A stretch of DNA of 64,000 bases from a virus. Taxonomy: Duplodnaviria; Caudoviricetes. The notes beneath the pieces are model-generated. The model was not told where the DNA came from and did no database searches. It worked only from the letters and a program-made list of their open reading frames with translations. The DNA lies in IMG/VR virus record IMGVR_UViG_3300033068_000963, positions 1-64,000 of that record. One strand, given 5' to 3'. Below are positions 13,689 through 54,639 of the stretch, piece after piece. Positions within the stretch are counted from its first letter, which is position 1. Every line of letters starts with the position of its first letter. Both the position numbers and the translations under genes were made by a program.

Positions 13689-13832
13689 CCTGAGACCATG
13701 TCGGGGGGCTCCATCACCATTTCAGACACGTCAGCGGGGCCTCCCCCCGGACCGCTGACACGTGCGCGGGGCCGAGGTCTGATGACTTCGGCCCTTGCTG
13801 CGCTTCGATCCCTGCCTGATGCCCTCTCCAGG

Positions 13833-14057
13833 TCATGGCGCGGTAGAGCGGGGCCGGGTGCGTATCTCCCGGTCCCGTTCGAGAATTTCGTCGGCCAGGG
13901 CTGCAACCCGAGCCGCATGTCTATCCGCCGCCGCCGTGAAGTTCACACGGCCATGGGGGCGTTCTCTCGCCAGTTCTCGGTACGCCCCAGCCAGAGCCGC
14001 CGCGCTGATGATCGCCAAGATCAGTCCGTCGTCTACGTCGTCCCAAGCCTCCTGCAC
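13833..14057 (-). CDS. Small antisense protein, homologous to 53927-54142
   Basis: AGGGAG RBS; 17/45 ungapped identity to the phage 2 counterpart. Confidence 0.7.
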   Translation of the reverse strand: MQEAWDDVDDGLILAIISAAALAGAYRELARERPHGRVNFTAAADRHAARVAALADEILERDREIRTRPRSTAP

Positions 14058-14098
14058 TCGCTCGGCTCCCTGCCGCTGCCTGCCTCACGGTTCAAACC

Positions 14099-14524
14099 AT
14101 GAGGGCGCAGATGGCCGGGTCCTATGACCAAAAGAGCAACCTTCCCGGCAGGGGCGAGCGTGTCGCCGCCTTCGTCGAGGACTACCTGAAACACCACGGG
14201 GGTCTGTCGATCTCCGAACTCGCGTTCCGCCTGCGGGCCGACAAGCGAGACCTTCAACGCCTCCTCAGAGACCGCAGCGTCGGACACGCCCTGGAGGACG
14301 CCTGCGCGGCCTACTTCGGGCCGATCTTCGGTGATGCGGTCTGGGGCGACCTCTGGGGCTCTGGCCCGTCGAAAAGGGAGCGAGAGCTTGAACGCGAAAA
14401 AGCCGAACTCGCCGCCCGCCGTGAACGCCTGGAGCGCCTGCGTGCGGACGATCGCCAAGCCGCTTCTGTGGCTCGCGCTGGGCGCCGGATGGGCGCTGTC
14501 GAGCATCGGAGCGCCGATGTTTAG
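14099..14524 (+). CDS. CII-like HTH regulator
   Basis: LSISELAFRLRADKRDLQRLL; position in the operon. Confidence 0.55.
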   Translation: MRAQMAGSYDQKSNLPGRGERVAAFVEDYLKHHGGLSISELAFRLRADKRDLQRLLRDRSVGHALEDACAAYFGPIFGDAVWGDLWGSGPSKRERELEREKAELAARRERLERLRADDRQAASVARAGRRMGAVEHRSADV

Positions 14525-14631
14525 CGCCGGCATGAACCTCGAGACTTGGGCGCGGAAGAAGCTGCGCGCCCTCAAGAAATAGACCCCCAAGACCGCCGGG
14601 GGTCCGGGGCGGTCGAGCGACGGAGGTGGGC

Positions 14632-15333
14632 ATGGCCCGCGCCAAGAAGAACCCCGGCCCCGGCCACAATTCCGGTGAGCCCCTGACCGAAGACGAGATC
14701 GCCGCCCTGGAGGCGCTGTTCTCCCAGAAGATCCGCGCCGCCGAGAAGGAATTCCTCGAAGCCAAGGCGGTCGCCGACGGCAAGCGGCAGGTCATCAACG
14801 ACAACTTCGCCCTGGTGAAGGCCGAACTGCGGACCAGCCGCAAGGACTTCGAGGCCTTCATGGCCAAGCAGGACTTGAGCGAGGCCGAGTTCGCCGCCGA
14901 GTTCGAGAAGGAGATGGCCCGCTACCGTCGCCACGGGATGCCGGTCGGCGCCCAGCAGGACATGTTCGCCGCCGACACGGTGGACGATCAGGTCATTGCA
15001 CGGGCCGATGGCAAGCGCGCCGGCCTCCGCGGCGCCGACCCGACCCCGCCGACCTACATCTCCGGCGTGATGGTTCAGGACTGGATGGAGGGCTACCACG
15101 CCGGCCAGTCCGAGCTCTGCATGCGCCTGGACAAGGGCGGGGCGCTTCTCGCTGCGCGCCAGGCCGCCGCCAAGGCCGCGCAGAACGCGGGCAAGCTGCA
15201 GGCCGGTGAAGACCCCGACGAAGAAGAGGCCGATCCCGACGAGGAGATCGACGACGCCGCGAAGGCGCTGAAGAAGGCCGGATGGGCCGAGCCGACTCCG
15301 GAAGAGAAGTCCTTCGAGACGGCGGACGCGTGA
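14632..15333 (+). CDS. Protein with weak GapR-like N-terminus and RMF-like motif
   Basis: GHNSG then helical region; A..DG.RAGL.G...P.Y......WMEGY. Confidence 0.5.
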   Translation: MARAKKNPGPGHNSGEPLTEDEIAALEALFSQKIRAAEKEFLEAKAVADGKRQVINDNFALVKAELRTSRKDFEAFMAKQDLSEAEFAAEFEKEMARYRRHGMPVGAQQDMFAADTVDDQVIARADGKRAGLRGADPTPPTYISGVMVQDWMEGYHAGQSELCMRLDKGGALLAARQAAAKAAQNAGKLQAGEDPDEEEADPDEEIDDAAKALKKAGWAEPTPEEKSFETADA

Positions 15334-15869
15334 TGGAGGTGCTCGCCTTCAGTCTTAACGGCGAGCCCCGTGGGAAAGGGCGACCGCGCGTGGATACGCG
15401 CGGCGCCTTCCCGCGCATCCACACCGACCAAAAGACCATCGACTACGAGCGGAGCATCTCGGAGCTTTCGCGCAAGATCATGGCGGGGCGCCCGCCGATA
15501 ATCGGCGCCACGTCAGTCTCCCTTCGCTTCCGCCTGCCAATCCCGAAATCCATCAGCAAGACCCGCCGCGCGGCGATGCTGGCCGGCGAGATCGCGCCGA
15601 CCTCGAAGCCAGACCTCGACAACGCCACCAAGGCTTGTCTGGACGGAATGGCGGTCGACGCCGTGATGCGGCGGAAGCTGCTCAAGCTGCGCCGGGCTGG
15701 CGTTGCAGTCGACGTCAACCAAGCCCGCATCGTGTTCTTGGACGACGCCCAGATCGTCCGCCTCTTCGTCACCAAAATCTATGCCGAGCAGCCGGGCGTC
15801 GATGTCCGGATCGAAGCCTTGGATGTCCAGCCGCCCTTCCCAACCCCCACCTCACGGAGCGCCGCATGA
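15333..15869 (+). CDS. rusA: RusA Holliday junction resolvase
   Basis: P.GKGRPR, KPDLDN..K..LD and DDAQIV. Confidence 0.9.
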   Translation: MEVLAFSLNGEPRGKGRPRVDTRGAFPRIHTDQKTIDYERSISELSRKIMAGRPPIIGATSVSLRFRLPIPKSISKTRRAAMLAGEIAPTSKPDLDNATKACLDGMAVDAVMRRKLLKLRRAGVAVDVNQARIVFLDDAQIVRLFVTKIYAEQPGVDVRIEALDVQPPFPTPTSRSAA

Positions 15870-16597
15870 GCGCCTTGACCCTGCAGAACGCCCCCTGGAC
15901 CCCCGCGCATGAAACCGTGCTGCGATCCCTCTGGGCCGACCCATCGAAGTCCGCCGAAGACGTCGCCGAGACGATGCAGCGGTCCTGGCAGTCGTGCCGG
16001 GTCAAGGCGGGGTTCATGGAGCTGGGCCGCCGCCCGACCGGCGTGCCGACTGCCAAGAATGCTTTCTGGACCCCGGAGCGGGTCGCGGTCCTGAAGGACG
16101 GGATCGCCGCCGGCCGCTTCATGTCGGTTCTCGCCCGCGAGCTGGGCTGCACGAGGAACGCCTGCATCGGCAAGGCGACGAGGATGGGCTTCACCCAGCC
16201 CGCCGCCGCGTCCCCGCCGATGCGCCTGGCGAAGGCCGCGACGCCTACGGTACGGCTGGGGTCATCCACCCGCAACGCCCCGCCCAAGGCTCGCCTGACC
16301 GTCGTCGGGAACAACACCGTCATCGAGCACCCCCAGCGCCCGCCCTTGGTCCTGACCCGCGCGGATGTCTGGAGGCCGCTGCCCGACAGCAAGCCCCGCC
16401 CGTTCGAGACGCGGCGCTTGAGCGACTGCAACTGGCCCGTCGAGGTCGAGGGCGAGATCGAGGGGACGATGCGCTGCTGCCTCCCGGTGGAGCATGGCGG
16501 GTACTGCTCGACCCATCGGGCCATCGCCCGGGCGCCCCGCCAGCCGCGCGACGCCAAGCCGGGGCAACTCGCCCGGAGCCTGCGCCGCTATGCGTGA
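15866..16597 (+). CDS. GcrA-family regulator
   Basis: WTPERV..L....LG.TRNA.IGKA.RMG HTH (two WT.. repeats) plus CNWP..CC...YC..H. Confidence 0.85.
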   Translation: MSALTLQNAPWTPAHETVLRSLWADPSKSAEDVAETMQRSWQSCRVKAGFMELGRRPTGVPTAKNAFWTPERVAVLKDGIAAGRFMSVLARELGCTRNACIGKATRMGFTQPAAASPPMRLAKAATPTVRLGSSTRNAPPKARLTVVGNNTVIEHPQRPPLVLTRADVWRPLPDSKPRPFETRRLSDCNWPVEVEGEIEGTMRCCLPVEHGGYCSTHRAIARAPRQPRDAKPGQLARSLRRYA

Positions 16598-17687
16598 GGA
16601 CCATACGCTAGAGGCCGGGGCCTGCGCCGAGGAAATCCTCAAGTTCGCCCTGGCTCGCCTGACAACGGAGCGCGAGGAGCAGGCCGGATGGGTGCTCGAC
16701 CTGACCGACCAGCTTCAGACCGCCCGCCTCCTGCTGGCCGAGGCCGAGGTCGCGGAGGAGGCGATCAAGAAGCTGCTGGCTGGTGACCTCTACGCGAAGA
16801 ACGATGCGATCCTGGGCGCGGCCGAAGGTGCCGAGGAAGTCGCCGCTCCTGCCCCCGTCGCTGAGCCGGTCGACGTCATTGAATGGGCCGACGTTCGCTG
16901 GCCCTGGACCGACGCCCACTGGCGCTTCGTCTACGAGATGCGCTGGCCTGTGGTGGTGGAGGCCAAGCCGACCGTCGCTGTCACGCCGGAGCCGGCCGCG
17001 CCCGCCGCGCCGACCTCCCGCGTCGCATCACCGGCGCCCGCCGACCGACCCATCGCGCACAGCCAGGACGACGCCGTGCTGGCGACCCTGCGGCGCCTGA
17101 TTGGCGACAAGGGCGAGGTCACGATCTCGCTGAGCGCCCTGGCCGCCGAGGCTGACGTTCCGAAGGGCAGCGTCACCTTCATCGCCGGGCGTCTTCGCGA
17201 TGCTGGTTTGGTGGAGATCATCGTGGCCGAGCGCATCTTCGGTCGCAAGCCGCCGAACACCTACCGCCTGAGCGGGCCCGCGCAGCCCCATCCCCCTGAG
17301 CCCGCACCCCGAAAGGCCGCGGAGACTTGGGTCGCCAACGTCCCGGCCGCCGTCGTCGAGCGCGTCCGCCCGCCTGAGCCCGAGGCGCCCGTCGCAGCGC
17401 CTGAGCCTCGCGAGATTGACCTTTCCGCACTCGCCATCGCCTCCGACAGTCCGCCCGGCTTCGGGCCCTGCACCCTCATGAACCTGCGCCGCGATCAGTG
17501 CCATTGGCCGACCGGCGACGCGCGGCCGCAACTCTACTGCGGGGCCGTCGCGAACCCCGGCGAGGAATACTGCCGCGCCCACCGCGACAGCATGTTCGCC
17601 AGGACCGCCCGCCGCGCTCCCCAACCGACAGACCCCCGCGCCGTCGACGCGCGCCTTGAAGCTTCACGCCAGCGGAGGTCGATTTGA
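16590..17687 (+). CDS. Multidomain protein with wHTH and GcrA C-terminal domain
   Basis: LMNL....CHWPTGD....YCG......YC..H. Confidence 0.75.
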   Translation: MREDHTLEAGACAEEILKFALARLTTEREEQAGWVLDLTDQLQTARLLLAEAEVAEEAIKKLLAGDLYAKNDAILGAAEGAEEVAAPAPVAEPVDVIEWADVRWPWTDAHWRFVYEMRWPVVVEAKPTVAVTPEPAAPAAPTSRVASPAPADRPIAHSQDDAVLATLRRLIGDKGEVTISLSALAAEADVPKGSVTFIAGRLRDAGLVEIIVAERIFGRKPPNTYRLSGPAQPHPPEPAPRKAAETWVANVPAAVVERVRPPEPEAPVAAPEPREIDLSALAIASDSPPGFGPCTLMNLRRDQCHWPTGDARPQLYCGAVANPGEEYCRAHRDSMFARTARRAPQPTDPRAVDARLEASRQRRSI

Positions 17688-18013
17688 CCCGCCCCATCAT
17701 CACCCACACGAAGCTTCGCGGCCCCTCCGGCGAAGCCACCCGCTACCGTCGTCGCGCGGCCAATGAATCCGCCCTGCGCTTCATGCGCGCCTTCCACACC
17801 GAGTGCGGAGACAAGCACCCGGAGTTCGTCATCGCAGCCGCCCGCATGACCATTCGGGCGTTGGCGATGGTGGTGGAAGACAAGGGCGACGCTGGCCGCG
17901 CCCTGGGGGTGCTGAACGGGGCGGGGATTGATCTGGTCCCGGCGTACCGGGATGGGCGCCAAGGGGTGCTGGCGGAGGCTGAGGCGGTGTTCTCGGCGGG
18001 AGGGGCGGAATGA
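17684..18013 (+). CDS. Hypothetical protein
   Basis: Coupled ORF; GGAGG RBS. Confidence 0.6.
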   Translation: MTRPIITHTKLRGPSGEATRYRRRAANESALRFMRAFHTECGDKHPEFVIAAARMTIRALAMVVEDKGDAGRALGVLNGAGIDLVPAYRDGRQGVLAEAEAVFSAGGAE

Positions 18014-18786
18014 CCCACCGCACCGAAACCATCGGTTCCGCGACGCTGCACCTGGGCGACTGCCTGGAGATCGCGCCGACCCTCGGCCGGGTCGATCACA
18101 CCATGATGGACCCGCCTTACGAGGCGATCATGCACGCGTCCAAAGACAACATGAAGGGCCTCGTCCGCCCGGACGGCTCCCACCACTGGAAGCCCCTCGG
18201 CTTCGAATCCATCGACGAGGTGCGCGCTGAAGTGGTCCGCGTCTTCGGGGACATCACCGACGGCTGGTTCATCGCCTTCTGCACCTCCGAAGGCGTCGGC
18301 CGCTGGGCTGACGAGATCAATCCGAGCCCCATGAAATATAAGCGGGCCTGCGTCTGGGTGAAGCCCGACAGCACGCCGCAGATGAACGGCCAAGGCCCGG
18401 CGCAGGGCGCGGAGCACTTCGTCTGCGCCTGGGCCGGCAGCGGCTTCGCGAAGTGGAACGCTGGCGGAAAGCGCGGCGTCTACACCCACAGCGTCAATGC
18501 CGGCCGTCAAGGCGAACACCCGACCGAGAAGCCCGTCTCGCTGATGCTGGAACTGGTGTCGGACTTCACCTCGCCCGGCCAAGTCGTGTGCGACGGGTTC
18601 ATGGGGTCGGGCACGACCGGAGTCGCCTGCCTGCAACTGGGCCGCACCTTCATCGGCATCGAGAAGGATGAGCGCTGGTTCGACTTGGCCTGCCGCCGCA
18701 TCGAGGCCGCCCATCGCCAACCCCGCCTGTTCGAGGAGCCGCCGGCTAAGGCCGTGCAGCCTTCGCTGTTGGAGCCGTCCGCATGA
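18010..18786 (+). CDS. Beta-class N6-adenine/N4-cytosine DNA methyltransferase
   Basis: DPPY, HPTEKP and DGFMGSGTTG. Confidence 0.92.
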   Translation: MTHRTETIGSATLHLGDCLEIAPTLGRVDHTMMDPPYEAIMHASKDNMKGLVRPDGSHHWKPLGFESIDEVRAEVVRVFGDITDGWFIAFCTSEGVGRWADEINPSPMKYKRACVWVKPDSTPQMNGQGPAQGAEHFVCAWAGSGFAKWNAGGKRGVYTHSVNAGRQGEHPTEKPVSLMLELVSDFTSPGQVVCDGFMGSGTTGVACLQLGRTFIGIEKDERWFDLACRRIEAAHRQPRLFEEPPAKAVQPSLLEPSA

Positions 18787-18983
18787 TCCCCGCCGCCATC
18801 GAAACCATGCGCTCCACCTCCACCACCCTCCTGATCGAACGCGCCAGGCTCGACGGGGTCCTGATGGCCCTCTGCGAGACCGGCGGCTTCCCCATGACCG
18901 TCGCAGCCGTGCAATCGGCGCTGCAACGGCTCGCGGCGGAACAGCGGGCGGCGGGCGATCTGCCGGAAGGGTGGGTTTCGTGA
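18783..18983 (+). CDS. Hypothetical protein
   Basis: Coupled at both ends. Confidence 0.55.
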   Translation: MIPAAIETMRSTSTTLLIERARLDGVLMALCETGGFPMTVAAVQSALQRLAAEQRAAGDLPEGWVS

Positions 18984-19690
18984 GCTTCTCGGTCATCGAC
19001 CTGTATTGCGGCGAAGGCGGCGCGGCCGAGGGCTACCGCCAGGCCGGCGCAACCCTGATCGTGGGCGTCGACCTCTCCAAGCAGCCTCGATACCCGTTCG
19101 GCTTCCTGCTGGCCGACGGGACCACGATGGACCCGCGGTTCATCCGTCAGTTCGATCTCGCGCACGCCTCGCCGCCCTGCCAGTTCGGGACCGAGCTCAA
19201 CAGCGACAAGAGCCGCCACCTCAACCTGATCCCTCAGACCCGGGCCCTCCTGCAGGCCGCCGGCGTCCCCTATGTGATCGAGAACGTCCGCGCCGTCCGG
19301 CCGCACCTGATCGAGCCGGTGAGCCTGTTCGGCTTCATGTTCGGCAACAAGATGACGACCACCCGCGGCGAGGTCTTTCACCTGTCCCGCGAGCGTTTGT
19401 TCGAGACCAACTGGGGCCTCACGGCGCCGGCGCTCTGGTCCCCGCAGCAGCCGATCGCGAACGTCTTCGGCGGCCACCTCCGGTCCCGCAGCGGCGAGTA
19501 TCGCACCGGCAACGGAACCGGCCGGACCCGCGACTTCATCGGCGAGGACAAGCCAGCCCTGGCGCGTGAGTTGATGGGGATGCCTTGGGCGACCATGAAC
19601 GGGATCTCGGAAGCGGTTCCGCCCTCCTTCACCCGCTACATCGGCGAACAGTTCCTGGCCCACCGTCAACAGGCGAGGGCCGCAGCATGA
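18980..19690 (+). CDS. Short C5-cytosine DNA methyltransferase
   Basis: DLYCGEGG, ASPPCQ, IENV, R.R.F and EAVPP. Confidence 0.85.
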   Translation: MSFSVIDLYCGEGGAAEGYRQAGATLIVGVDLSKQPRYPFGFLLADGTTMDPRFIRQFDLAHASPPCQFGTELNSDKSRHLNLIPQTRALLQAAGVPYVIENVRAVRPHLIEPVSLFGFMFGNKMTTTRGEVFHLSRERLFETNWGLTAPALWSPQQPIANVFGGHLRSRSGEYRTGNGTGRTRDFIGEDKPALARELMGMPWATMNGISEAVPPSFTRYIGEQFLAHRQQARAAA

Positions 19691-21186
19691 CCCCATCCCC
19701 ATCCCTCGCCCTGGTCCCCCAGGCCGACGTCACCGGGCCTCCGGCCAACCTCGACGCCGAGCAAGCCCTGCTGGGCATCCTGCTCTACGACAACGCCGCG
19801 CTGGAGCGCATCGGCGACAGCCTCAAGGCCGTCCACTTCTTCGAGCCCTTCCACTCCCGGCTCTACGACGTCATCGAGGGCCACGTCCGCCGCGGGCAAC
19901 TCGCCGAGCCGATCCTGATGGCCGAGCAGTTCAGCCGCGACCCAGCGTTCAACGAGTTGGGCGGGGTCTCTTATCTTGCCGATCTGGTGGACCGCGCGCC
20001 ATCCAGCGCCAACGCCCCCGACTATGCCCGGGTGATCTTCGATCTCGCCCGGCGCCGGGAACTGATCCGCATCGGCGGGGACCTGATCGACAGCGCGACC
20101 CGGCCCCGCGACGAAGAGACCAGCCAGGACATGCTGGAGGGCGCCGAGCAGGCCCTCTATTCGCTCGCCGAAACCGGAACCGCATCTCAGGGCTTCCAGG
20201 CGTCCGACGACTATCTCGCCGGCGCCATCAACATGGCCGCCGCGGCGTTCTCGCGGGATGGCGGCTTGTCGGGCCTCTCCACCGGCCTGGCCGATCTCGA
20301 CTCCAAGCTGGGCGGGCTGCACCCGTCCGACCTGCTGATCCTCGCCGCCCGCCCCTCGATGGGCAAGAGCGCGCTGGCTGTGAACATCGCCCTCCACGTC
20401 GCCCGCCGCTACGCCTTCGAGGTCGCGCCCGACGGGTCGCACCGCACGACGGACGGCGGCCGGGTGGCGTTCTACTCGCTCGAAATGTCCGCCGAGCAGT
20501 TGGGGATGCGGATGCTCGCCGAGATGTCCGGCGTCTCCGGCGACCGGCTCCGGAAGGGTGAGATCGAGGCGACTGAGTTCGCCAGGGTCCGCGACGCCGC
20601 TTACGAACTCCAGGGGATGCCCCTCTTCGTCGACGCGACGGGCGGGATCAGCATGGCGAAGATGGCCGCGCGCGCCCGCCGGATGAAGCGCCAGGGCGGT
20701 CTCGACCTGATCGTGGTGGACTACCTGCAGCTCATGTCATCGGGCCAGCGCACCGAGAACCGGGTTCAGGAGATCAGCACCATCACCGGCGGCCTCAAGG
20801 CGCTCGCCAAGGAACTCTCGGTTCCGGTTCTGGCCCTGTCGCAACTCTCCCGCCAGGTCGAGCAGCGGGAAGACAAGAAGCCGATGCTCTCCGACCTGCG
20901 CGAATCCGGCTCCATCGAGCAGGACGCCGACTGCGTGATGTTCATCTACCGCGAGGAATACTACCTCTCCCGCACCGAGCCCAAGGCCGGCACGCCCGAA
21001 CACCTCGCCTGGTGCGATGAGATGGATCAGGCCCGCGGCCTTGCCGAGGTGATCGTCGGCAAGCAGCGTCACGGCCCCATCGGGACCGTCCGCATGGCCT
21101 TCAACGAAGACCTCACCAAGTTCTCCAACCTAGCGCGCGATCCGAGCCGGTTCGGCTCGCCGCGCCTGCCCCATGGACAAGACTGA
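19687..21186 (+). CDS. dnaB: Replicative DNA helicase
   Basis: AARPSMGKS, VVDYLQL, LSQLSR, SDLRESGSIEQDAD and KQRHGP. Confidence 0.97.
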   Translation: MTPSPSLALVPQADVTGPPANLDAEQALLGILLYDNAALERIGDSLKAVHFFEPFHSRLYDVIEGHVRRGQLAEPILMAEQFSRDPAFNELGGVSYLADLVDRAPSSANAPDYARVIFDLARRRELIRIGGDLIDSATRPRDEETSQDMLEGAEQALYSLAETGTASQGFQASDDYLAGAINMAAAAFSRDGGLSGLSTGLADLDSKLGGLHPSDLLILAARPSMGKSALAVNIALHVARRYAFEVAPDGSHRTTDGGRVAFYSLEMSAEQLGMRMLAEMSGVSGDRLRKGEIEATEFARVRDAAYELQGMPLFVDATGGISMAKMAARARRMKRQGGLDLIVVDYLQLMSSGQRTENRVQEISTITGGLKALAKELSVPVLALSQLSRQVEQREDKKPMLSDLRESGSIEQDADCVMFIYREEYYLSRTEPKAGTPEHLAWCDEMDQARGLAEVIVGKQRHGPIGTVRMAFNEDLTKFSNLARDPSRFGSPRLPHGQD

Positions 21187-25181: not shown

Positions 25182-25183
25182 CG

Positions 25184-27697: not shown

Positions 27698-27698
27698 C

Positions 27699-40830: not shown

Positions 40831-40833
40831 ACC

Positions 40834-42696: not shown

Positions 42697-42699
42697 GGC

Positions 42700-47035: not shown

Positions 47036-47218
47036 ACCCCCACACCCTCACTCAATGTGGGGTCGAGCATAGTCCGCCCGACGGTGCTGTAACACCGCCG
47101 GGCGCGGCCTTCGGGCAGTGAGTCCCTAGACCGACCTCGCGCGAGGCGTCGGCCAGGGACCACGAAAGCTGAGCCATGAAAACCCCCATCAACAGCCGAG
47201 CGAAGTGAGACGCCCGAC

Positions 47219-47542
47219 ATGCTGAGCGAATATCTCCCCATCGGCCTTGCGGCGGTCGCCGCTATCGTCTGGCTCGTCCGGCTTGAGGGCCGCGTGAATG
47301 CTTCCGAGAAGGCCGGCTCCGCCATCGCCGCCACGGGGGAAAAGGCCGACGAAGCCCTGCGTCTCGACATCGTCGCGATCAAGGCCGCCCAGACCGCCCG
47401 CGAGGCCAAGCACGACCAGATGAACGAGAACCTGATCCGGGTGCAGGAGCAGCTCAAGCATCTGACGAGCCTCTTCGAGCGGCACTTCGTTGAGCCGCAG
47501 CCACCATCAAATCCCACCCGGCGCCGGACGCCGCAGTCGTGA
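47219..47542 (+). CDS. Membrane-anchored coiled-coil lysis-region protein
   Basis: N-terminal TM, then WLVRLEGRV. Confidence 0.65.
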   Translation: MLSEYLPIGLAAVAAIVWLVRLEGRVNASEKAGSAIAATGEKADEALRLDIVAIKAAQTAREAKHDQMNENLIRVQEQLKHLTSLFERHFVEPQPPSNPTRRRTPQS

Positions 47543-47727
47543 CCCTGGCCCCGGTCGAGATGAACTATCTCCCGGCGGTCTCCAAGCTCCTCCAGGCCCG
47601 TTACGAAGAGGCCCGCCGCCTCTGGGTCGCCGAACCCTCAAACGGCCTGCTACCCTATCCCAAGCGGCGCACGTCGAAGCGCAAGCCGATCCCCGCGACC
47701 CTGGACGCGCCAGAGGTCGAGGGATGA
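47539..47727 (+). CDS. Hypothetical protein
   Basis: Coupled at both ends. Confidence 0.5.
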   Translation: MTLAPVEMNYLPAVSKLLQARYEEARRLWVAEPSNGLLPYPKRRTSKRKPIPATLDAPEVEG

Positions 47728-48905
47728 GCGCGCCAACTCAGATCGACCCTGGCCTGCTGGACTTCGCCTCACCCGCCCAGCGCCGGTACTGCGAGGCCAT
47801 CAACCTGCATGGGTCGGCCCGCGCCGCCGCCCGCGCCCTTGGTGTGGCGCCCAACGCGGTGAGCGGGGCCATCGAACGGCTTCGCAGGCACGCCGCTGAT
47901 CGAGGCTACTCCCCAGACCACGACATGACCCGCACCGTTCCCGATGGGTTCAAGGTCCGGGGCGTCTCCACCTACTACGACAGCGAGGGCAAGGCGCGCG
48001 GCCAGTGGGTCAAGAGCGCAGCGGACGATGAGCGCCGGGCGGAAATGCTGCGCGCCGCGGTTGCCGCGATGGCGGAGGATCTGCCCCGCGTCGATCCGAT
48101 CGAGGCCCCGGCCTGGGCCATGGCGTCGCTCGCGAACCTCTACACCATCACCGACTATCACCTCGGAATGTACGCCTGGGCCAAGGAGAGCGGTTCGGCG
48201 TGGGACATCAAGATCGCCGAAAACACCATGCTCTCGGCCTTCACCCACATGGTGACGAGCGCGCCCAAGGCCCGCCTAGGCATCATCAACATCCAGGGCG
48301 ACTTCCTCCACACCGACGGCCCGACGCCCGTGACGCCGATGCACGGCCATGTCCTCGACGCCGCCGGTCGATACTCCGAAATGGTCGCCGCCGCCGTGCG
48401 GGTCCTGCGTCGGGTCATCGACCTGGCCCTGATGCGCCACGAAGCCGTCGAGCTTCTGATCTGCGAGGGCAATCACGATCTGTCGGGCTCGATGTGGCTG
48501 CGGCACATGTTCTCCGCGCTCTACGAGAACGAGCCCCGCCTGGCCGTGAACGACAGCGAGTTGCCGTTCTACGTGATCCAGCACGGCCAAACCATGCTGG
48601 CTTTCCACCACGGCCATCAGGTGAAGAACGAGGCGCTCCCCCTCCTGTTCGCCGCGCAGTTCCCGAAAATCTGGGGCGCGACCTCCAAGCGGTACGGGCA
48701 TTGCGGCCATCGCCACCACACCGACGAAAAAGAGCACGCGGGGATGAAGGTCATCCAGCACCCGACTCTGGCCGCGCGTGACGCCTACGCGGCGCGGGGC
48801 GGCTGGATCGCAGAACGCTCCGCCATCGCCATCACCTACCACGACCGCTTCGGGGCCGTTGGCCGCGTCGAGGTGACGCCGGAAATGCTGGAGGACGCCG
48901 CATGA
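47724..48905 (+). CDS. HTH-fused calcineurin-like metallophosphoesterase
   Basis: DYH, GDFLH, GNHD, HGH and GHRH; N-terminal SARAAARALGV. Confidence 0.85.
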   Translation: MSAPTQIDPGLLDFASPAQRRYCEAINLHGSARAAARALGVAPNAVSGAIERLRRHAADRGYSPDHDMTRTVPDGFKVRGVSTYYDSEGKARGQWVKSAADDERRAEMLRAAVAAMAEDLPRVDPIEAPAWAMASLANLYTITDYHLGMYAWAKESGSAWDIKIAENTMLSAFTHMVTSAPKARLGIINIQGDFLHTDGPTPVTPMHGHVLDAAGRYSEMVAAAVRVLRRVIDLALMRHEAVELLICEGNHDLSGSMWLRHMFSALYENEPRLAVNDSELPFYVIQHGQTMLAFHHGHQVKNEALPLLFAAQFPKIWGATSKRYGHCGHRHHTDEKEHAGMKVIQHPTLAARDAYAARGGWIAERSAIAITYHDRFGAVGRVEVTPEMLEDAA

Positions 48906-49165
48906 CCATCGACGAGTTCAAGAGCCTGATCGGCGACCTCTCCCGGCCCCTGTCGATCATCCTGGCCTCCGCGTCGGGCTCCGTCGCCACCATCGTCATC
49001 GCCTTCAAGGTGACGACGTTCGGGGAGGGCGCGCTGTTCATCGGCGCGGTCTGGACCGGCGTCGTCGGGCTCTACACCGCCAAGGCCTGGGAGGTGTCGC
49101 GCGCCGGGAAGCAGGCGGCGGACGTGGAGATCGCCAAGACCCAAACCCCAGGACCGGCGCAATGA
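48902..49165 (+). CDS. Holin-like protein
   Basis: Two TM segments, directly before the endolysin. Confidence 0.65.
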   Translation: MTIDEFKSLIGDLSRPLSIILASASGSVATIVIAFKVTTFGEGALFIGAVWTGVVGLYTAKAWEVSRAGKQAADVEIAKTQTPGPAQ

Positions 49166-49572
49166 CCTTCGCCCTCAGCAAGACCTCGCTCGCCCGCCTC
49201 GAGGGTGTGGATCCGCGCCTCGTCGCCATCGTCAAACGCGCGATCCAGATTTCGACGGTGGACTTCATGGTCGTGGAGGGCGTCCGCACCCTGGCCCGCC
49301 AAAAGCAACTCTATGCCCAAGGCCGCACCGTCCCAGGCAAGGTCGTAACGTGGACCCTCAAGTCCCGGCACATTGACGGGGAGGCGGTCGACCTGCTTCC
49401 CGCGCCCTACGACTGGAAGGACCCCAAGGGGTTCGATGCCGTGAACCGCGCCATGATGCAGGCGGCGGATGAGCTTGGCGTCGGCCTGCGCTGGGGGGCG
49501 GATTGGGATCGTGACGGCAAGCCCCGCGAGAAGGGCGAAGGCGACTCTCCGCATTGGGAGCTTGCGGCATGA
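49162..49572 (+). CDS. M15 (L-Ala-D-Glu) peptidase endolysin
   Basis: EGVRT..RQ..LYAQGR, SRH..G.AVD, RWG.DW and D.PHWEL. Confidence 0.92.
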   Translation: MTFALSKTSLARLEGVDPRLVAIVKRAIQISTVDFMVVEGVRTLARQKQLYAQGRTVPGKVVTWTLKSRHIDGEAVDLLPAPYDWKDPKGFDAVNRAMMQAADELGVGLRWGADWDRDGKPREKGEGDSPHWELAA

Positions 49573-49967
49573 TGATCGCCCTCAAGTTCTGGCGTGAAAT
49601 CCTGATCGCCGCCCTCGTCGCCTCCCTCGCCCTGGCCGGCGCTTTCATCAAGCACCAGGCCGGAAAGATCGGAGACCAGCGCGACGCCCTCACAACCGCC
49701 GCAGACGCCCTCAGGACGGCTGCTGACGCGATCCGCGACCGAGACGACGCCTTGAGCCTCAACGCCGCTCAGGAGGCCTCAGACGCCACCCAAACCGCAA
49801 CCTTCTACCGAGGAGCCGCACGCGATGCGTTCAACGCTGGTTATGCCTCTCGCCCTCGCTGTCCTGGCGAGCCCGCTCCTGTCGGGGTGCAGCCTGATCT
49901 CCGGGCGCTCTGGTCCGCAGGCGCCATCCCCGGTTCCGCTGGTCTGCCCGGCAAGCCTCGCGGCTGA
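49569..49967 (+). CDS. Inner-membrane spanin (Rz-like)
   Basis: N-terminal TM and coiled coil. Confidence 0.75.
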   Translation: MMIALKFWREILIAALVASLALAGAFIKHQAGKIGDQRDALTTAADALRTAADAIRDRDDALSLNAAQEASDATQTATFYRGAARDAFNAGYASRPRCPGEPAPVGVQPDLRALWSAGAIPGSAGLPGKPRG

Positions 49968-50136
49968 AATCCCCGCCGAGCCCCTGCCTCCCGAGGGTAT
50001 CGACCCCTCAACCCTCCCGCCCGCTCTGTCGGCGTTCCTGTGGGGCGAGTGGGTTCCGTGGTCCAGGGCCAACGCCCATCGGCTGGGGCAGGCTCAGAGA
50101 TGGTGCATCGGCAAGACGCATCCTCCTGACGGCTAG
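49825..50136 (+). CDS. Outer-membrane spanin lipoprotein (Rz1-like)
   Basis: LLSGC lipobox; Pro-rich; overlaps the i-spanin. Confidence 0.8.
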   Translation: MRSTLVMPLALAVLASPLLSGCSLISGRSGPQAPSPVPLVCPASLAAEIPAEPLPPEGIDPSTLPPALSAFLWGEWVPWSRANAHRLGQAQRWCIGKTHPPDG

Positions 50137-50231
50137 TGAAAGGCAGAGGGACGTTCCGCGTTCCACTGGCTTGCTAATGAAAGGCAGGCCTTCACCACCC
50201 CCAGCGTTGAGCCTTAGCGGCTCCGCTTGAT

Positions 50232-50264
50232 AGGCCCCTCGGTTCACGCCGGGGGGCCTTCTTC
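50232..50264 (+). terminator. Terminator ending the late operon
   Basis: aggcccctcgg..ccggggggcct followed by tcttc. Confidence 0.7.
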
Positions 50265-50517
50265 ATGTCTGGGCCAAGGCGGCGTCCAGCGCCGCGTCGA
50301 ACCCCATCCCGCCCGCGACAGAGCTCAAGACGGTGCAGACGATCTCAGGCGTGTATCCGTATAGGTCCCACGCCTTCTCAATCGCAATGAAGGCGTCCAG
50401 GGCGTCGGGGTTGCGCATGAGCGCGACGTAGGCCTTGAGGTCCGCGTCGGCCGCCCACATCTGAGCCTCCCAGCCGTCGTACTGGGCCTGCATCTTCATC
50501 TCCATGTCGCTGCTCAT
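50263..50517 (-). CDS. Hypothetical protein
   Basis: Coupled leftward operon. Confidence 0.6.
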   Translation of the reverse strand: MSSDMEMKMQAQYDGWEAQMWAADADLKAYVALMRNPDALDAFIAIEKAWDLYGYTPEIVCTVLSSVAGGMGFDAALDAALAQT

Positions 50518-50705
50518 TCCGGCTGTCCCTGTTGCCATTGGCCCTCCGCTCGACACCACGAGTCGGCGCATTCCTGACAGAGGTTCTCGCCGTCCAGATT
50601 GGTGACGCGAGCGCGGTCATCGTGGTTGACGCAGCCCGGCGGCATGACTTCGTGCTCGTCATCCAGAAAGGCGTTCAGGATGGGGATGTGGAGATCGCCG
50701 GTCAT
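50514..50705 (-). CDS. Small Cys/His protein
   Basis: CVNH....LCQEC. Confidence 0.6.
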   Translation of the reverse strand: MTGDLHIPILNAFLDDEHEVMPPGCVNHDDRARVTNLDGENLCQECADSWCRAEGQWQQGQPE

Positions 50706-50977
50706 TTCAGGCCATCCACCATCGCGATTGCGCTGTCCGCCCCGCGCCAAGCTTCGATGCTGTCGGCGTCCTGATCGTCGTCTTCCCAGTTCGAGGGCCG
50801 GGCGTGGTCAACGAGATCGCAGATCACCTCATGCAGAGCGGCGCGCTCCAAGAGGGCGGCTGTCAGCGCCTCCCCGGCCCGCTTGTTGTAGTCGCGGAGA
50901 TCCATTGCGCCCTCGGTTGCCGACCGGCGCCAGAGAGCGATCTTGTCCTGCAACAGGGTGAACTGATCGCGGGTCAA
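50702..50977 (-). CDS. Hypothetical protein
   Basis: Coupled ORF. Confidence 0.55.
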   Translation of the reverse strand: MTRDQFTLLQDKIALWRRSATEGAMDLRDYNKRAGEALTAALLERAALHEVICDLVDHARPSNWEDDDQDADSIEAWRGADSAIAMVDGLK

Positions 50978-51213
50978 AGGTCCGCCTCCAACAGTTCGGC
51001 GCACCGCTCAAGGCAGAAGCGCAGGTCCGGCCCCATCATGCCCGGAAGGTCGGAAAGCTCAGCGGTCTCCGACCAATACCGCGCCATGGACGCCACAGAG
51101 GCGCGAGAGGCGTCGTCGCGCTTGGTTCGGCAATGACCTACGCAATAGCGGCTGTCGGCGCACAGGCGGCGCATTTCGCAGCCGTCACCGGTCTTGAAGG
51201 GTTCGCTGCTCAT
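50974..51213 (-). CDS. Cys-rich hypothetical protein
   Basis: Coupled ORF. Confidence 0.55.
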   Translation of the reverse strand: MSSEPFKTGDGCEMRRLCADSRYCVGHCRTKRDDASRASVASMARYWSETAELSDLPGMMGPDLRFCLERCAELLEADL

Positions 51214-51548
51214 GGGAAGCGGGCTCCAACTTTCTGAAGGTACGCGACGACGGCCTTTGCGCCGTCCCGCGAGGTCCAGTCCATATCCATGCTGTCGCTG
51301 ATAGCGTCAGCGATGTCGTCTTCGAGGTCGCCCCAGTCGACTCCCTCGTAGACCCACGCGTGCTCAGTGATCTTGAGCGACCAGAGCGGACCGCGAAGGC
51401 TCAGCCGGAAGGCGTCGGCCGCCGTGCGGTTTTCCCATTTCAGCGCCTCGTTCGGGTCGCTGGTGAACGTGCCGTGCGCGGCGTTTTCCAGCCATCGGCC
51501 CTCGTCGTTTTCCAGGAACCACCACGTCTTCGGGTCAGTAGTCGTCAC
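51210..51548 (-). CDS. Hypothetical protein
   Basis: FTSDPNEALKW..R..A; ITEHAW. Confidence 0.6.
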   Translation of the reverse strand: MTTTDPKTWWFLENDEGRWLENAAHGTFTSDPNEALKWENRTAADAFRLSLRGPLWSLKITEHAWVYEGVDWGDLEDDIADAISDSMDMDWTSRDGAKAVVAYLQKVGARFP

Positions 51549-51876
51549 GGTCGTCGCTCCCGGCCCATTCCATCTGATGATCGCGGTCGCTCGCCTCCGA
51601 CAGCATGGCTTCCGTGTGGTTCTGAGCGATGGCCTGAAGGATCGCCGCTTCGTCGCGCTGATCGAACGGGCCTCCGACGCCATCGACGGAAAGCAGCTTC
51701 AGGTCCTCGACCTCATCAGGGGCGCCGGGGTCGTAGCCCTCTGGCGGGCCGTAGTTGCCGGTTTCGGGTGAGCCCCAGGCGACGGTGAAGGAGACCTCCA
51801 CCTCGACCTCATCGGCCTCGGGAATGTCCCCGGTGCTGTAGGGCAGGGTGCAGGCGTAGGTGTAGCGGGTCGCCAT
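51535..51876 (-). CDS. Acidic hypothetical protein
   Basis: YGPPE.YDP..PDEVE. Confidence 0.65.
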   Translation of the reverse strand: MATRYTYACTLPYSTGDIPEADEVEVEVSFTVAWGSPETGNYGPPEGYDPGAPDEVEDLKLLSVDGVGGPFDQRDEAAILQAIAQNHTEAMLSEASDRDHQMEWAGSDDRDDY

Positions 51877-52067
51877 CACTCCCACCCCGCGCTCAGGCCG
51901 TGGTGGGGCGTGAAGGTGTACTTCTTGCCGTTGGTGGGGTTCCAGAGGCGGTAGTCGTCGGGACGGTAGTCGCCGGGGGTGGGGATGCACTCGACCACTT
52001 CCAGGGTCAGGAAGCCGACCTTGACGGAAGCGCCGGGGGTCCAGTCTTGCTTGGTGCGGGTGATCAT
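51876..52067 (-). CDS. Small protein; its 5' end is the repeat shared with the window start
   Basis: MITRTKQDWTPGASVKVGFL..Y.FTPHHGL; GGAG RBS. Confidence 0.8.
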   Translation of the reverse strand: MITRTKQDWTPGASVKVGFLTLEVVECIPTPGDYRPDDYRLWNPTNGKKYTFTPHHGLSAGWE

Positions 52068-52069
52068 GG
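51994..52069. repeat. Exact direct repeat, copy 2
   Basis: Identical to 1-76. Confidence 0.97.
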
Positions 52070-52084
52070 GGTGTCTCCGTTGTT

Positions 52085-52142
52085 GATTGAAGATACGAAA
52101 CGTACCCAATCACGTCAACGACTAAATGTACCCAATCACGCT
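52085..52142 (-). promoter_or_regulatory. PL/OL of phage 2
   Basis: TTGACG-17-TATCTT; two copies of GTACCCAATCACG. Confidence 0.75.
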
Positions 52143-52145
52143 TTT

Positions 52146-52481
52146 TTAGCCCGCCGCTTTGGAAAGCCGGATCGCCCGCTCCCGTTCCTCGGGGCTCATT
52201 TCCTGCCACGCCGCCTCCGCAGCATCTCGCCTGGGCGGTCCCTTGCCGGTTGTCAGCCATAGGGCGTTGACGTGGAAAGCCCGCGTGTAGCGTTCGACGT
52301 ACTTCTGCTTCAGCCCCTCGGCCTGGCGAAGGCCCTGCTCGTGGCTCTTATAGGTGTTCTCGTTCCAGCCATGCGCCTGAGCTGCGGAACGGGCGGACGT
52401 GAAGTGCGCCTTCTCCCTTGCCCAGCGCAAGCGCCCGCCAATGGTGTCCAGGTCCGGGGGTTCGATTGAGAACTTAGCCAT
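52146..52481 (-). CDS. Short XRE repressor without peptidase domain
   Basis: IGGRLRWARE..NTYKSHEQG..WL.TGKG. Confidence 0.85.
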   Translation of the reverse strand: MAKFSIEPPDLDTIGGRLRWAREKAHFTSARSAAQAHGWNENTYKSHEQGLRQAEGLKQKYVERYTRAFHVNALWLTTGKGPPRRDAAEAAWQEMSPEERERAIRLSKAAG

Positions 52482-52489
52482 CGGCGCAG

Positions 52490-52555
52490 AATGTACCCGC
52501 CGATTGGGTACAATGGGTGTTGACGTGATTGGGTTCATGACGTACCCAATGGGGT
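52490..52555. promoter_or_regulatory. OR/PR/PRM of phage 2
   Basis: GATTGGGTAC, CGTGATTGGG and GTACCCAAT match OL; TTGACG. Confidence 0.75.
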
Positions 52556-52789
52556 ATGGTTCAGAGCTTCAAAGACATCATCGAAAAGTTCGGCGGCCCG
52601 GCCAACTTCGGTCGTGCGGTCGGCATGTCCCCCGGCGCCGCAAAGCAGGCGGGCCGCCGTGACAGCATCGCCGCTGAGTGGTTTAGCGCCACGGCCCGCG
52701 CTGCTCATGAGCGCGGCTTCGGCGAGATTACGGAAGCCAGATTGGCCGAGTTGGCGGAACAACGCCGGACGGCTCCGAAGGCCGCGTAA
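52556..52789 (+). CDS. cro: Cro-like protein
   Basis: DIIEKFGG..F..AVG....RRDSI; similar to phage 1 Cro. Confidence 0.8.
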   Translation: MVQSFKDIIEKFGGPANFGRAVGMSPGAAKQAGRRDSIAAEWFSATARAAHERGFGEITEARLAELAEQRRTAPKAA

Positions 52790-53054
52790 TGCCCTGCCTC
52801 GCCATCACCTTCGGACAGGCTCCACAAGCCGTACATCGGCGCTTGAGCCAATCCGCCACGATGGCGTCGCGCACCCTGAGCATGGGCCGCTTTGACGGCG
52901 GGTTTTCCAACACCTTGAGCGCCCGCTTGACGCCCTTTCGGCAAGCCTTCGTGGCCTGCTTGTCCACCACTGCACGCAACAAACCACTCACCCACGAAAT
53001 CGCAGGACCGGCCACCATGACCGGTTGCGGCGAACCCTGGGGGAGCGAGTTCAC
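52728..53054 (-). CDS. Possible antisense protein
   Basis: ORF overlapped by the open sense frame 52789-53235; unclear which frame is functional. Confidence 0.35.
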   Translation of the reverse strand: MNSLPQGSPQPVMVAGPAISWVSGLLRAVVDKQATKACRKGVKRALKVLENPPSKRPMLRVRDAIVADWLKRRCTACGACPKVMARQGITRPSEPSGVVPPTRPIWLP

Positions 53055-53231
53055 CGACCGCGTTACGCGAACTACGACTCACAACCTTGGCCGTTGCAAT
53101 CGCCTCGCGGTTGATTTGCTCCCCGGTATGGTGCGGCAGGACGCCACGTCGATCTGGCGCCAAACGCATTTTGGGTGTCCGGGGCTCGACGCTCAACGTG
53201 TGGCTCTCGACACTCATAGCGGGGTGGCGGG

Positions 53232-53906
53232 ATGAGCGTTCGCACCGAGATCATCGGAGACTCGACGCTGTATCTCGGGGACTGCCGGGACATCCTTCCG
53301 ACGCTTGGCAAGGTGGACGCGGTTGTGACCGATCCGCCTTATGGGATCAGCGCCGCCAAGAAGGGGGCGCACTCCTCGATCCGAGACAACGCGTCCTGGG
53401 CGCCTGCGGATTGGGATGATGGTCGACCGCCCGCTCTGATCTTTGATGCCCTTCTGTCCGCTCGCGAGGTGGCCATCTGGGGCGGCAATTATTTCGCCGA
53501 TCTCCTTCCGGCCTCTTCGGCTTGGCTGGCATGGGTGAAGCCGGAGGCAGATACAGGATTCTCGCTCGCGGACATGGAGCTTTGCTGGACCAACCTCGGA
53601 TTTGCAGCTCGGACCAAGAGGCTTCCCCGTCGAGATGGGAATGATCATCCGACGCAGAAACCCGTCGCCGTGATGGCCTGGACGCTCGGTTTTGTGTCGT
53701 CGCAAACTATCCTCGACCCCTTCATGGGCTCGGGAACCACTGGTGTCGCCTGCGCCAATCTTGGCCGCAAGTTCATCGGCATTGAGCGCGAGCCGTCCTA
53801 CTTCGACATCGCCTGCCGCCGCATAGAGGCCGCTTACCGCCAGCCCCGGCTGTTTGACGAGCCGGTGGCTAAGGCCGTCCAGCCGTCCCTTCTGGAGTCG
53901 CTGTAA
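53232..53906 (+). CDS. Beta-class N6-adenine/N4-cytosine DNA methyltransferase
   Basis: TDPPY, HPTQKP and DPFMGSGTTG. Confidence 0.92.
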   Translation: MSVRTEIIGDSTLYLGDCRDILPTLGKVDAVVTDPPYGISAAKKGAHSSIRDNASWAPADWDDGRPPALIFDALLSAREVAIWGGNYFADLLPASSAWLAWVKPEADTGFSLADMELCWTNLGFAARTKRLPRRDGNDHPTQKPVAVMAWTLGFVSSQTILDPFMGSGTTGVACANLGRKFIGIEREPSYFDIACRRIEAAYRQPRLFDEPVAKAVQPSLLESL

Positions 53907-53926
53907 TGCGCTCCCCCCATTCCAAT

Positions 53927-54142
53927 TCACGCACACCCGCGAGCCCCCCCAGGGTGCGCGTGAGGGGAAGGGCTGTTCTCCAGCGGTCCTTCCCCAACCT
54001 CATCCAGCAACGCTCTAGCGCGTTCGCTATGGGCGTCGGCAAGCTTCAACAGCCCGCCGAGCCCGTCTCCGTTCTCCCTCACGAAACACCTCAGCTTGCC
54101 GGCGAGTGTCGCGTGATCCAGTGCGCGTTCGATAGCCTCCAT
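53927..54142 (-). CDS. Small antisense protein, homologous to 13833-14057
   Basis: GAGGA RBS; homology to the phage 1 ORF. Confidence 0.7.
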   Translation of the reverse strand: MEAIERALDHATLAGKLRCFVRENGDGLGGLLKLADAHSERARALLDEVGEGPLENSPSPHAHPGGARGCA

Positions 54143-54171
54143 GTCCGTCCGTCCTCTGTGGAGCCCCCACA

Positions 54172-54639
54172 ATGACAACATGGATGGACGGTTTCGTGCC
54201 CGACGATGGACAACTTATCCGGCGCACCATGGGCGAAACGCTCGCTCAAATGGTCCGCAACCGGTGGCCCCATAATACCGCAAAGCACGTCGCGCGGGCA
54301 TGGGATTTAGACCCCACGACGGCGAAGAACCTGACGAAGGGGCACGCCAGCGAGCGGACCCTGACCAAGGCGATCCGAGCGGAAGGGTTCGAGTTGCTTG
54401 ACGCGCTCGGCCACGCCCTGACCGGCCAAACCCACCACGAGTGGGAAGAACAGAAACTCACCCGCATCATCGAGGAAGCCAACAATGCAGCATCCAACGC
54501 TCAAGAGCGTGTGCGGCGGCTTCATTCACGCCGCGCTCTCCTGGCTGAAGAGGCCGGGACCGTGGGCGAAGCTGACGCTGGGTCACACGCTGACCCTACG
54601 CGGTCTGCGCCGCCTCGCAAAATCCGAAACGCTGGCTGA
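54172..54639 (+). CDS. CII-like HTH regulator
   Basis: TAKHVARAWDL...TAKNL..G; position. Confidence 0.6.
   Translation: MTTWMDGFVPDDGQLIRRTMGETLAQMVRNRWPHNTAKHVARAWDLDPTTAKNLTKGHASERTLTKAIRAEGFELLDALGHALTGQTHHEWEEQKLTRIIEEANNAASNAQERVRRLHSRRALLAEEAGTVGEADAGSHADPTRSAPPRKIRNAG

Follow-up and report, generated by a model that had tools for sequence, protein, structure and literature searches.

A bridge frame across a backward gene

The first 64 kb of the virus record IMGVR_UViG_3300033068_000963 contain two examples of a gene arrangement in which an open reading frame (ORF) is probably translated and relays ribosomes across a gene that lies on the opposite strand, and thereby couples a downstream regulator gene to upstream translation. 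These 64,000 nucleotides (nt), hereafter the window, are the beginning of a 96-kb record (G+C content ~66%) and hold two temperate-phage genomes, A and B, both of which are prophages of the Caulobacter type. In both phages, a rightward operon is broken by a short minus-strand ORF (the small gene) that resides back-to-back with a plus-strand gene (the regulator, or partner). The frame that stays open on the operon strand opposite the small gene is referred to here as the bridge.

We compared 20 loci in which a member of the small-protein family is found beside a regulator gene, comprising the two in the window, 10 on metagenomic contigs and eight in Caulobacteraceae genomes. The ends of the upstream genes are the database’s own calls in 10 of these loci. 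At the level of sequence comparison, the loci establish that the small gene is real, that the bridge product is unconstrained, that the frame is locked in phase and coupled at its ends, that certain codons are avoided, and that a hairpin keeps its position.

In phage A, the small gene (13833..14057, minus strand) encodes 74 amino acids from a GTG start codon, with a GGAG Shine-Dalgarno sequence 8 nt upstream. Its partner (14099..14524, plus strand) encodes a 141-amino-acid protein with a helix-turn-helix (HTH) domain and a C-terminal coiled coil, and the two genes are separated by a spacer of 41 nt. In phage B, the homologous small gene (53927..54142, minus strand) encodes 71 amino acids from an ATG, and the gene for a partner of 155 amino acids (54172..54639, plus strand) begins after a spacer of 29 nt. 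An earlier note on this DNA had described both small genes as back-to-back with the neighbouring gene, and these spacers bear the description out.

Bridge ORF A (13698..14102, plus strand, 134 codons) starts with an ATG 9 nt after the upstream stop, is in register with small gene A, and ends with a TGA inside the partner’s ATGA. Bridge ORF B (53906..54175, plus strand, 89 codons) has an ATG that overlaps the stop of an upstream methylase gene (TAATG), and its TGA likewise lies inside the partner’s ATGA. Both plus frames are open from end to end, with stops that overlap the next ATG (ATGA at 14099 and 54172), as had been claimed.

Phase lock and coupled ends

The spacer between the small-gene start and the regulator start has a length of 3n+2 nt in 20 of 20 loci. 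Nine spacer lengths occur (26, 29, 32, 35, 38, 41, 47, 53 and 260 nt), and the probability that all nine would fall into one phase class if phase were free is ~(1/3)^8. The regulator start reads ATGA in 19 loci and GTGA in one. The second codon of the regulator specifies Thr, Ser, Arg, Asn or Met, yet its first base is always A; this A is conserved beyond the level of the amino acid. Because the spacer is always 3n+2 nt and the ATG is always followed by A, the in-register frame ends at a TGA that overlaps the regulator start in every locus. The earlier note had listed a lack of conservation of the open sense frame among the findings that would refute its proposal, which included ribosome delivery to the next gene, and the frame does run open to the regulator TGA in 20 of 20 loci, phase-locked to the ATGA in a manner that fits such delivery. 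An N-terminal extension of the minus-strand protein was considered as a cause of the phase lock and was rejected, given a minus-frame stop in the spacer of window locus A and of locus L001.

At positions 1666-1925 of locus L023, the longest spacer (260 nt) contains a second backward ORF of ~70 codons, which is arranged as a tandem with the small gene and shares its register. A single bridge frame of 184 codons covers both backward ORFs.

A bridge-frame start codon lies between -15 and +12 nt from the stop of the upstream gene in 16 of the 18 loci with an identifiable upstream gene, and 14 of these 16 start codons are ATG. The junctions take the form TAATG, TGATG, TAGTG, or a stop followed by 3 nt and ATG. 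The other two frames have a start near the upstream stop in four of 36 cases. Thus, as in translationally coupled gene pairs, an upstream stop overlaps or abuts a downstream start at both ends of the bridge ([A/G]TGA in 20 of 20 loci, upstream junction in 16 of 18). In phage B, the relay is unbroken from the cro-like gene onward: TAATG at 52787, a 148-codon ORF, ATGA at 53232, the methylase gene, TAATG at 53904, the bridge, ATGA at 54172, and the regulator gene. In most regulator genes, the ATG is also preceded, at a distance of 5-8 nt, by a weak element that resembles GGTG or GGAG.

Openness of the bridge and selection on the two strands

The second codon positions of the bridge frame face those of the small gene, so that the two are in codon register. 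In this register, plus-strand stops arise only opposite TTA, CTA or TCA codons, which are rare here; among 75-codon windows taken from confident genes of this DNA, 79% are open in the same register. Openness over the whole small gene is therefore expected, and other parts of the window have antisense ORFs as long as 700-860 codons. Nevertheless, the openness does not derive wholly from the codon usage of the real gene. No TTA, CTA or TCA codon is present among 1357 small-gene codons, versus 24 among 2799 codons in the adjoining regulator genes (P ~8e-6), which have a similar G+C content at third codon positions (GC3) and use these three codons at 0.86%. Outside the small gene, the spacers contain no stops in 305 bridge-frame codons, versus six and four in the other two frames.

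Substitution patterns separate the strands clearly. The ratio of nonsynonymous to synonymous substitution rates (dN/dS) is 0.24-0.54 for small gene A and 0.2-0.7 for small gene B, with values of 0.2-0.5 for close pairs of the family, and substitutions in small gene A between close relatives fall mostly at third codon positions (e.g. 13, 9 and 25 at positions 1, 2 and 3). Judged by these patterns, the small genes are under purifying selection. The in-register plus frame gives ratios of 0.96-1.63 for bridge A and 1.1-1.7 for bridge B (about 0.9-1.7 overall). Because these ratios are near or above 1, the bridge protein sequence is unconstrained. The per-strand comparison that the earlier note had proposed therefore yields a constrained minus gene (0.2-0.5) and an unconstrained plus frame, and the purifying selection on both products that would mark an overlapping gene pair is found on one product alone. 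The plus-frame products of A and B have no similarity to each other, and bridge products are low-complexity sequences rich in Arg, Pro, Ser and Gly that range from 89 to 229 codons, with no shared motif outside the overlap. Scoring of both strands by codon usage and GC3 was not decisive.

The small-protein family

The earlier note had also held that the two minus ORFs are homologous. Small proteins A and B align without gaps at 19 of 52 residues (BLASTP, E 2e-5 for the pair), and a search of the record with protein A finds B at E 4.9e-4. An A-type sequence (P0001) and B-type sequences (P0008 and P0010) have the same C-terminal tail, and all 12 A-type and B-type sequences could be aligned over their full length. 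Homology of A and B is certain because these intermediate sequences link them. The search for homologues that had been suggested, conducted with a profile against 1.8 billion representatives, returned 153 clusters at E ≤ 1e-3, nearly all of 55-90 amino acids. In most loci, GGAG is conserved 7-9 nt ahead of the small-gene start.

A further claim had been that annotation would probably favour the wrong strand. This expectation fits the A minus ORF, for which no identical protein is on record, but fails for B, whose minus ORF is the record’s own call P0003, and for the relatives of both. Relatives of small gene A at 77% identity are already called as genes, and public calls include the minus genes of all relatives, among them the nine of small gene B (64-100% identity, including P0003). 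No protein identical to either bridge ORF is on record.

The small protein is modelled as a two-helix hairpin (AlphaFold2, 38-sequence alignment; predicted local distance difference test, pLDDT, 90). Fold searches with this model return generic two-helix hairpins alone, such as encapsulated ferritin and arfaptin, at E 0.5 or worse, and searches of Pfam, PHROGs, NCBIfam, PADLOC, PDB sequences and the Atlas found no family match. A predicted complex of the small protein with its partner scored 0.01, which counts as evidence neither way.

Members of the family were found in nine of 301 genomes sampled in the Caulobacteraceae and in four of 127 sampled in the genus, with no further match among 400 genomes sampled across the class. 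A pattern search with the B-type alignment found one contig of a Caulobacter metagenome-assembled genome and a duplicate of locus L007. A nucleotide search of the phage collection gave no match, and searching viral and genome collections with patterns from the mixed alignment produced no confirmed match.

Predicted structure at the regulator start

A hairpin is predicted at the start of partner gene A (14068..14119, plus strand) with a minimum free energy of -28.1 kcal/mol and a z score of -3.96. In its inner stem (14083-14087 with 14100-14104, CCTCA/TGAGG), the bridge stop and the TG of the ATG are both paired. In phage B, a hairpin predicted over the ribosome-binding site (RBS) and start of the partner gene (54145..54191, plus strand; -22.7 kcal/mol, z -3.36) consists of an outer stem formed by 54145-54154 and 54182-54191 and an inner stem, formed by 54157-54161 and 54167-54171, that covers the GGAG. 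An inverted repeat brackets the regulator ATG in nearly every locus. The site of pairing is constant while the arms differ, as in CCTCA/TGAGG, CCGTC/GACGG, GGTCAT/ATGACC and CAGACAGGT/ACCTGTCTG, and the loop varies from 4 to 16 nt across loci. The mean folding z score of the 54-nt regulator start region is -2.5 in 19 loci, versus +0.34 for 30 other gene starts in the window (Mann-Whitney p 2e-8). An inhibitory structure around the downstream start, which is typical of gene pairs coupled by RNA unfolding, is thus present by prediction.

In most loci, the regulator gene contains an AT-rich island at about +30 to +50 (near 14130-14150 and 54205-54222 in the window). It consists of rare codons (CAA CTT, AAT CTC, AAT TTA, AAT CTA) that encode a G-x-N/Q-L-P motif, and it frequently forms a short palindrome, with one arm rich in G and the other in C (type GGGGA-AAATC-TCCCC). 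The island resembles a nucleic-acid signal laid over coding sequence, and could possibly be the -10 region of a promoter for the small gene. A scan for sigma-70 consensus promoters found none. The spacer upstream of the small gene (mostly 26-53 nt) is too short to contain a promoter, and therefore the small-gene transcript should start inside the regulator gene, antisense to its start region.

The regulator

The plus-strand gene that lies back-to-back with the small gene belongs to the same family in all loci. BLASTP does not align partners A and B with each other; they join one HTH and coiled-coil family once relatives are added, and A then groups with the partner of L009. The partner alignment is too diverse for pattern searching. 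The model of partner B (AlphaFold2, pLDDT 83) has a five-helix XRE-type HTH domain at residues 20-84 and a long C-terminal helix of 44 residues (88-131). Its best fold neighbours are weak (E 0.06-0.5) and include XRE regulators, restriction-modification controller proteins and a phage repressor, and the Atlas structure rows for the partner are HTH_3 families.

The neighbour had been called ‘cII-like’, a description that holds for position and general architecture and does not extend to sequence. The partner is, on the evidence of its model, an XRE-fold HTH regulator that is cII-like only in those two respects. Its predicted architecture fits the CII class (an HTH domain and an oligomerization helix, encoded by the gene that comes next after cro in the early rightward operon). 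In L009, L028 and L029, the regulator gene does hold this place behind the cro-like gene, and only the backward gene separates the two. By sequence, the partner belongs neither to the lambda CII family (PF05269) nor to the 186 CII family (PF06892). Partner gene A has no match in Pfam, PHROGs or NCBIfam; seven members of the partner family and the two window proteins have no Pfam match, for the seven even at E ≤ 5; and a search of the whole record with PF06892 (186 CII, Phage_CP76) found nothing at E ≤ 10. One Atlas feature neighbour of the partner (score 0.88), in which 32% of the members carry PF06892, serves as a lead only.

Proposed mechanism and alternative explanations

We propose that the two genes constitute a module within the early, lytic-direction operon, in which a backward gene for a helical-hairpin protein of 60-85 residues is followed, in operon sense, by a gene for an XRE-type HTH coiled-coil regulator. 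The operon strand would keep the bridge ORF to avoid a stretch of 300-450 nt of untranslated operon mRNA at the backward gene. Starting at or next to the upstream stop, the bridge would carry ribosomes in register through the antisense of the small gene to the ATGA of the regulator gene, whose RBS and start codon would be locked in the hairpin. A ribosome finishing the bridge ORF would open the hairpin, reinitiate at the regulator start, or both. Since ribosome arrival would unlock the start, the regulator would be made only if the operon is translated from upstream. Continuous translation would also be expected to shield the transcript from Rho-dependent polarity. The bridge product would be meaningless, with selection acting on openness and phase alone. 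We infer that the bridge is actually translated and that it controls the regulator in this way.

Several observations weigh against this proposal or limit its support. The openness inside the small gene is largely an effect of codon register in GC-rich sequence, so that part of the signal comes free. The figure for the gap between the upstream gene and the small gene (no stops in 646 bridge-frame codons versus 15 and 14 in the other two frames) is weighted less because it is partly circular where the upstream gene shares the bridge frame. No start codon was found near the upstream stop in L003 and L006, and the L006 frame would begin 420 nt earlier, where it overlaps a real gene. The 20 loci are not fully independent and represent ~15 lineages below roughly 60% identity. 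The hairpin has no strand asymmetry, and because it folds about equally well on either strand, we infer rather than observe its place on the operon mRNA; it could instead act in the leader of the small gene or as a DNA site. Some independent initiation of the regulator is possible at those starts with the weak GGTG/GGAG-like element. Finally, the evidence for bridge translation is comparative. One sequencing run contains the entire window and is probably its source sample, and runs labelled as RNA yielded relatives’ contigs alone (85-95% likeness), which cover 12400-13801 and 14632-15266, not the module, and carry no strand.

If the bridge were a pure shadow ORF, it would be open through the GC-rich codon usage of the minus gene alone, its ATGA and nearby start codons would be coincidental, and the plus strand would be neither translated nor selected. 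The register of the two frames, the high proportion of open 75-codon windows, the long antisense ORFs elsewhere and the unconstrained plus product all agree with this explanation. We nevertheless consider it very improbable, as it leaves unexplained why the spacer is 3n+2 nt at nine different lengths in 20 of 20 loci, why start codons accompany the upstream stop in 16 of 18 loci versus four of 36 cases in other frames, why the flanks outside the small gene are open, and why TTA, CTA and TCA are absent when neighbours of similar GC3 use them at 0.86%. True double coding, in which the plus ORF also makes a functional protein, is less credible still, to the point that we would be surprised to see it confirmed. 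The coupled start and stop signals are those of an ordinary operon gene, and public gene callers chose the plus strand at a comparable place in phage B (P0162), but dN/dS in register is ~1 or above, the products of A and B are dissimilar, and the products vary from 89 to 229 codons in low-complexity sequence with no common motif outside the overlap. A third explanation assigns the phase lock and the inverted repeat to the minus strand or to the DNA itself, either as an operator for the HTH protein or through pairing of the small-gene leader with the regulator start. The equal stability of the hairpin on both strands speaks for such a role, as does the short spacer (26-53 nt), which forces the transcript to start inside the regulator gene and makes it complementary to the regulator start, and the AT-rich island of rare codons at +30 to +50 in most loci could supply a -10 element. 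This explanation gives no reason for spacer steps of 3 nt or for the constant A after ATG; a loop of 4 to 16 nt is unlike an operator; and the spacer is not minus-coding, because a stop interrupts it in window locus A and L001. We regard it as an unlikely substitute for the bridge, with which it is compatible and to which it could be added as a further layer.

A separate question is what the small protein does. The suggestion that it is a lysogeny-establishment factor, transcribed from a promoter that resembles PRE, lies at the regulator gene’s 5ʹ end and is activated by the CII-like regulator, is a tentative one that we hold to be less probable than not. In its favour, the small gene and the repressor gene share one orientation in all loci with a visible repressor. 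Moreover, L009, L028 and L029, where the cro-like gene alone separates the small gene from the repressor gene, have the topology of lambda PRE-cro-cI, and there the regulator gene comes first after cro and encodes a predicted HTH domain with an oligomerizing helix; the Atlas neighbour mentioned above adds its lead. Against it, the regulator matches neither PF06892 nor any CII model, the consensus scan found no promoter, and the small protein matches no known family. The hairpins that follow small gene A and the 1.6 kb with other genes that lie between it and the repressor gene also fit a self-contained moron expressed in the lysogen at least as well. A more ambitious and rather doubtful elaboration would make the module a compact lysis-lysogeny toggle, in which relayed ribosomes unlock the regulator while an opposed, regulator-dependent PRE-like promoter within the first 50 nt of the regulator gene produces the mRNA for the small protein. 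The leader of the small gene would then be antisense to the regulator start region, its transcription would collide with that of the operon, and the same 100 nt would serve as coupling hairpin, antisense target and promoter. On this toggle model, the helical-hairpin protein would represent a new factor, for establishment or for immunity, in temperate phages of the Caulobacter type.

Genomic surroundings of the module

The repressor gene of phage A (11494..12240, minus strand) encodes a LexA-like protein (HTH_3 and Peptidase_S24, by library match) and has the same orientation as small gene A. The early operon runs rightward from ~12470. L001 and the contigs of relatives, as far as 13801, conserve the upstream gene (13230..13688, plus strand), whose stop bounds bridge ORF A. 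Between this gene and small gene A, inside bridge ORF A, two strong hairpins are predicted (13727..13798, together -44.5 kcal/mol), and both stems are kept in L001 by compensatory changes. The terminator scan misses these hairpins because they lack a T run. They may be terminators for the small-gene transcript, a tR1-like site on the operon strand, or both. The 40-nt segment that immediately precedes the two hairpins (13690-13726) is almost identical in L001. Where phage A has these two hairpins, phage B has just 20 nt after its small gene.

The immunity region of phage B comprises an HTH repressor-like gene (52146-52538, minus strand) and a cro-like gene (52556-52789, plus strand); because Pfam gave no match, both are identified from their translations, by position and HTH-like sequence. 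The upstream gene in phage B (53232..53906, plus strand), whose TAA overlaps the bridge ATG, encodes a DNA methyltransferase (PF01555, 1e-20; phrog_67, 4e-46). A possible second bridge lies ahead of it at 52728-53235. There, a plus ORF of 148 codons (52789-53235) begins with TAATG at the stop of the cro-like gene, ends in the ATGA of the methylase gene, and was selected by gene callers both here (P0162) and in L006. When the window is compared with L006, the minus ORF at 52728-53054 is spared at the second codon position (seven, one and seven changes at positions 1, 2 and 3), and the plus ORF is struck there (four, 11 and 12). The minus ORF has a called relative of 77 amino acids. The two frames coincide in their third positions, a register that is not automatically stop-free.

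Relatives of the phage A region at ~90% identity (wastewater, biofilm and mosquito-associated libraries; runs X10, X16-X18) share the flanks at 12400-13801 and 14632-15266. In place of the module (13801-14632), the same relatives have 326 different letters; this comparison, made at 85% likeness, is weak. The arrangement suggests that a mobile cassette has been exchanged at 13801 and 14632. In many loci (e.g. L007, L009, L016, L019, L022 and L029), upstream genes that are otherwise unrelated end alike just before the bridge start, with Ala-Ala or Pro-Ala followed by GCCGCCTGA or GCCTGA. These similar ends suggest a common recombination joint at the module boundary.

A few family members are found without a partner. 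In L015 the sense frame holds a stop, L025 is a weak match, and L020 is without a start codon. In L013 a methylase gene comes next after a spacer of 40 nt, and the frame ends 11 nt inside that gene. These four loci are too few to form a proper negative control.

Relation to known systems

Coupling by RNA unfolding and by reinitiation, and Rho-dependent polarity on untranslated RNA, are established mechanisms (PMC12548453). Classic cases of coupling include the coat-lysis/replicase genes of MS2 and rpmI-rplT (reviewed in PMC12548453). The module shares with such systems its ATGA, TAATG and TGATG junctions, a predicted structure at the downstream start, and a weak RBS inside the upstream ORF. 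Unlike these systems, the upstream ‘gene’ has no conserved product, is antisense to a real gene, and seemingly serves as a ribosome carrier only. Antisense genes are mentioned nowhere in the review cited above.

Among printed work, the closest parallel comes from ambigrammatic narnaviruses. Their reverse ORF runs without stops in codon register with the gene for RNA-dependent RNA polymerase, and its translation itself seems to be the function (PMC8316113). In both systems, the frame that faces a real gene is in register and free of stops, selection concerns its openness and not its product, and ribosome cover is the proposed function. The narnavirus ORF differs in that it spans the genome of a eukaryotic RNA virus and has no coupling to neighbours, whereas the bridge is a short ORF with phase-locked ends in the operon of a DNA phage. 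Shadow ORFs of GC-rich genomes have the same register and, for part of the openness, the same mechanical cause, but they are without coupled starts and stops, phase lock or extra codon avoidance, all three of which are present here.

The module also parallels lambda PRE/cII/cro and 186 pE/CII, in that a leftward unit runs from the 5ʹ end of an HTH regulator gene, antisense to the lytic operon and toward the repressor gene. However, lambda has no protein gene in that antisense stretch, and the regulator described here falls outside both CII sequence families. For antisense overlapping genes of E. coli O157:H7, two functional proteins have been argued from the expression data of one strain (PMC9927249, 10.1101/2020.11.18.388249). 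Those pairs likewise place opposite-strand ORFs with expression signals on the same DNA; in the module, only one product is under constraint, and the argument is built on a comparison of 20 loci. A literature search for antisense overlap with coupling in phages returned E. coli overlapping-gene papers only, with no printed description of such an arrangement.

Implications

The 20 loci provide comparative evidence that a phage can maintain an open frame on the strand facing a real gene because translation matters there, and not the protein that results. They also carry a warning for annotation, as either strand may be called in such regions and the other ORF is not simply noise. The module offers a simple system in Caulobacter phages with which to test translational coupling, Rho polarity and antisense overlap. 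It brings to light two uncharacterised families, a small helical hairpin and an XRE-type coiled-coil regulator, that travel as a pair beside the immunity region. If bridges are translated as proposed, they would explain how backward genes, whether lysogeny-direction or accessory, can be inserted into tightly coupled phage operons without breaking them.

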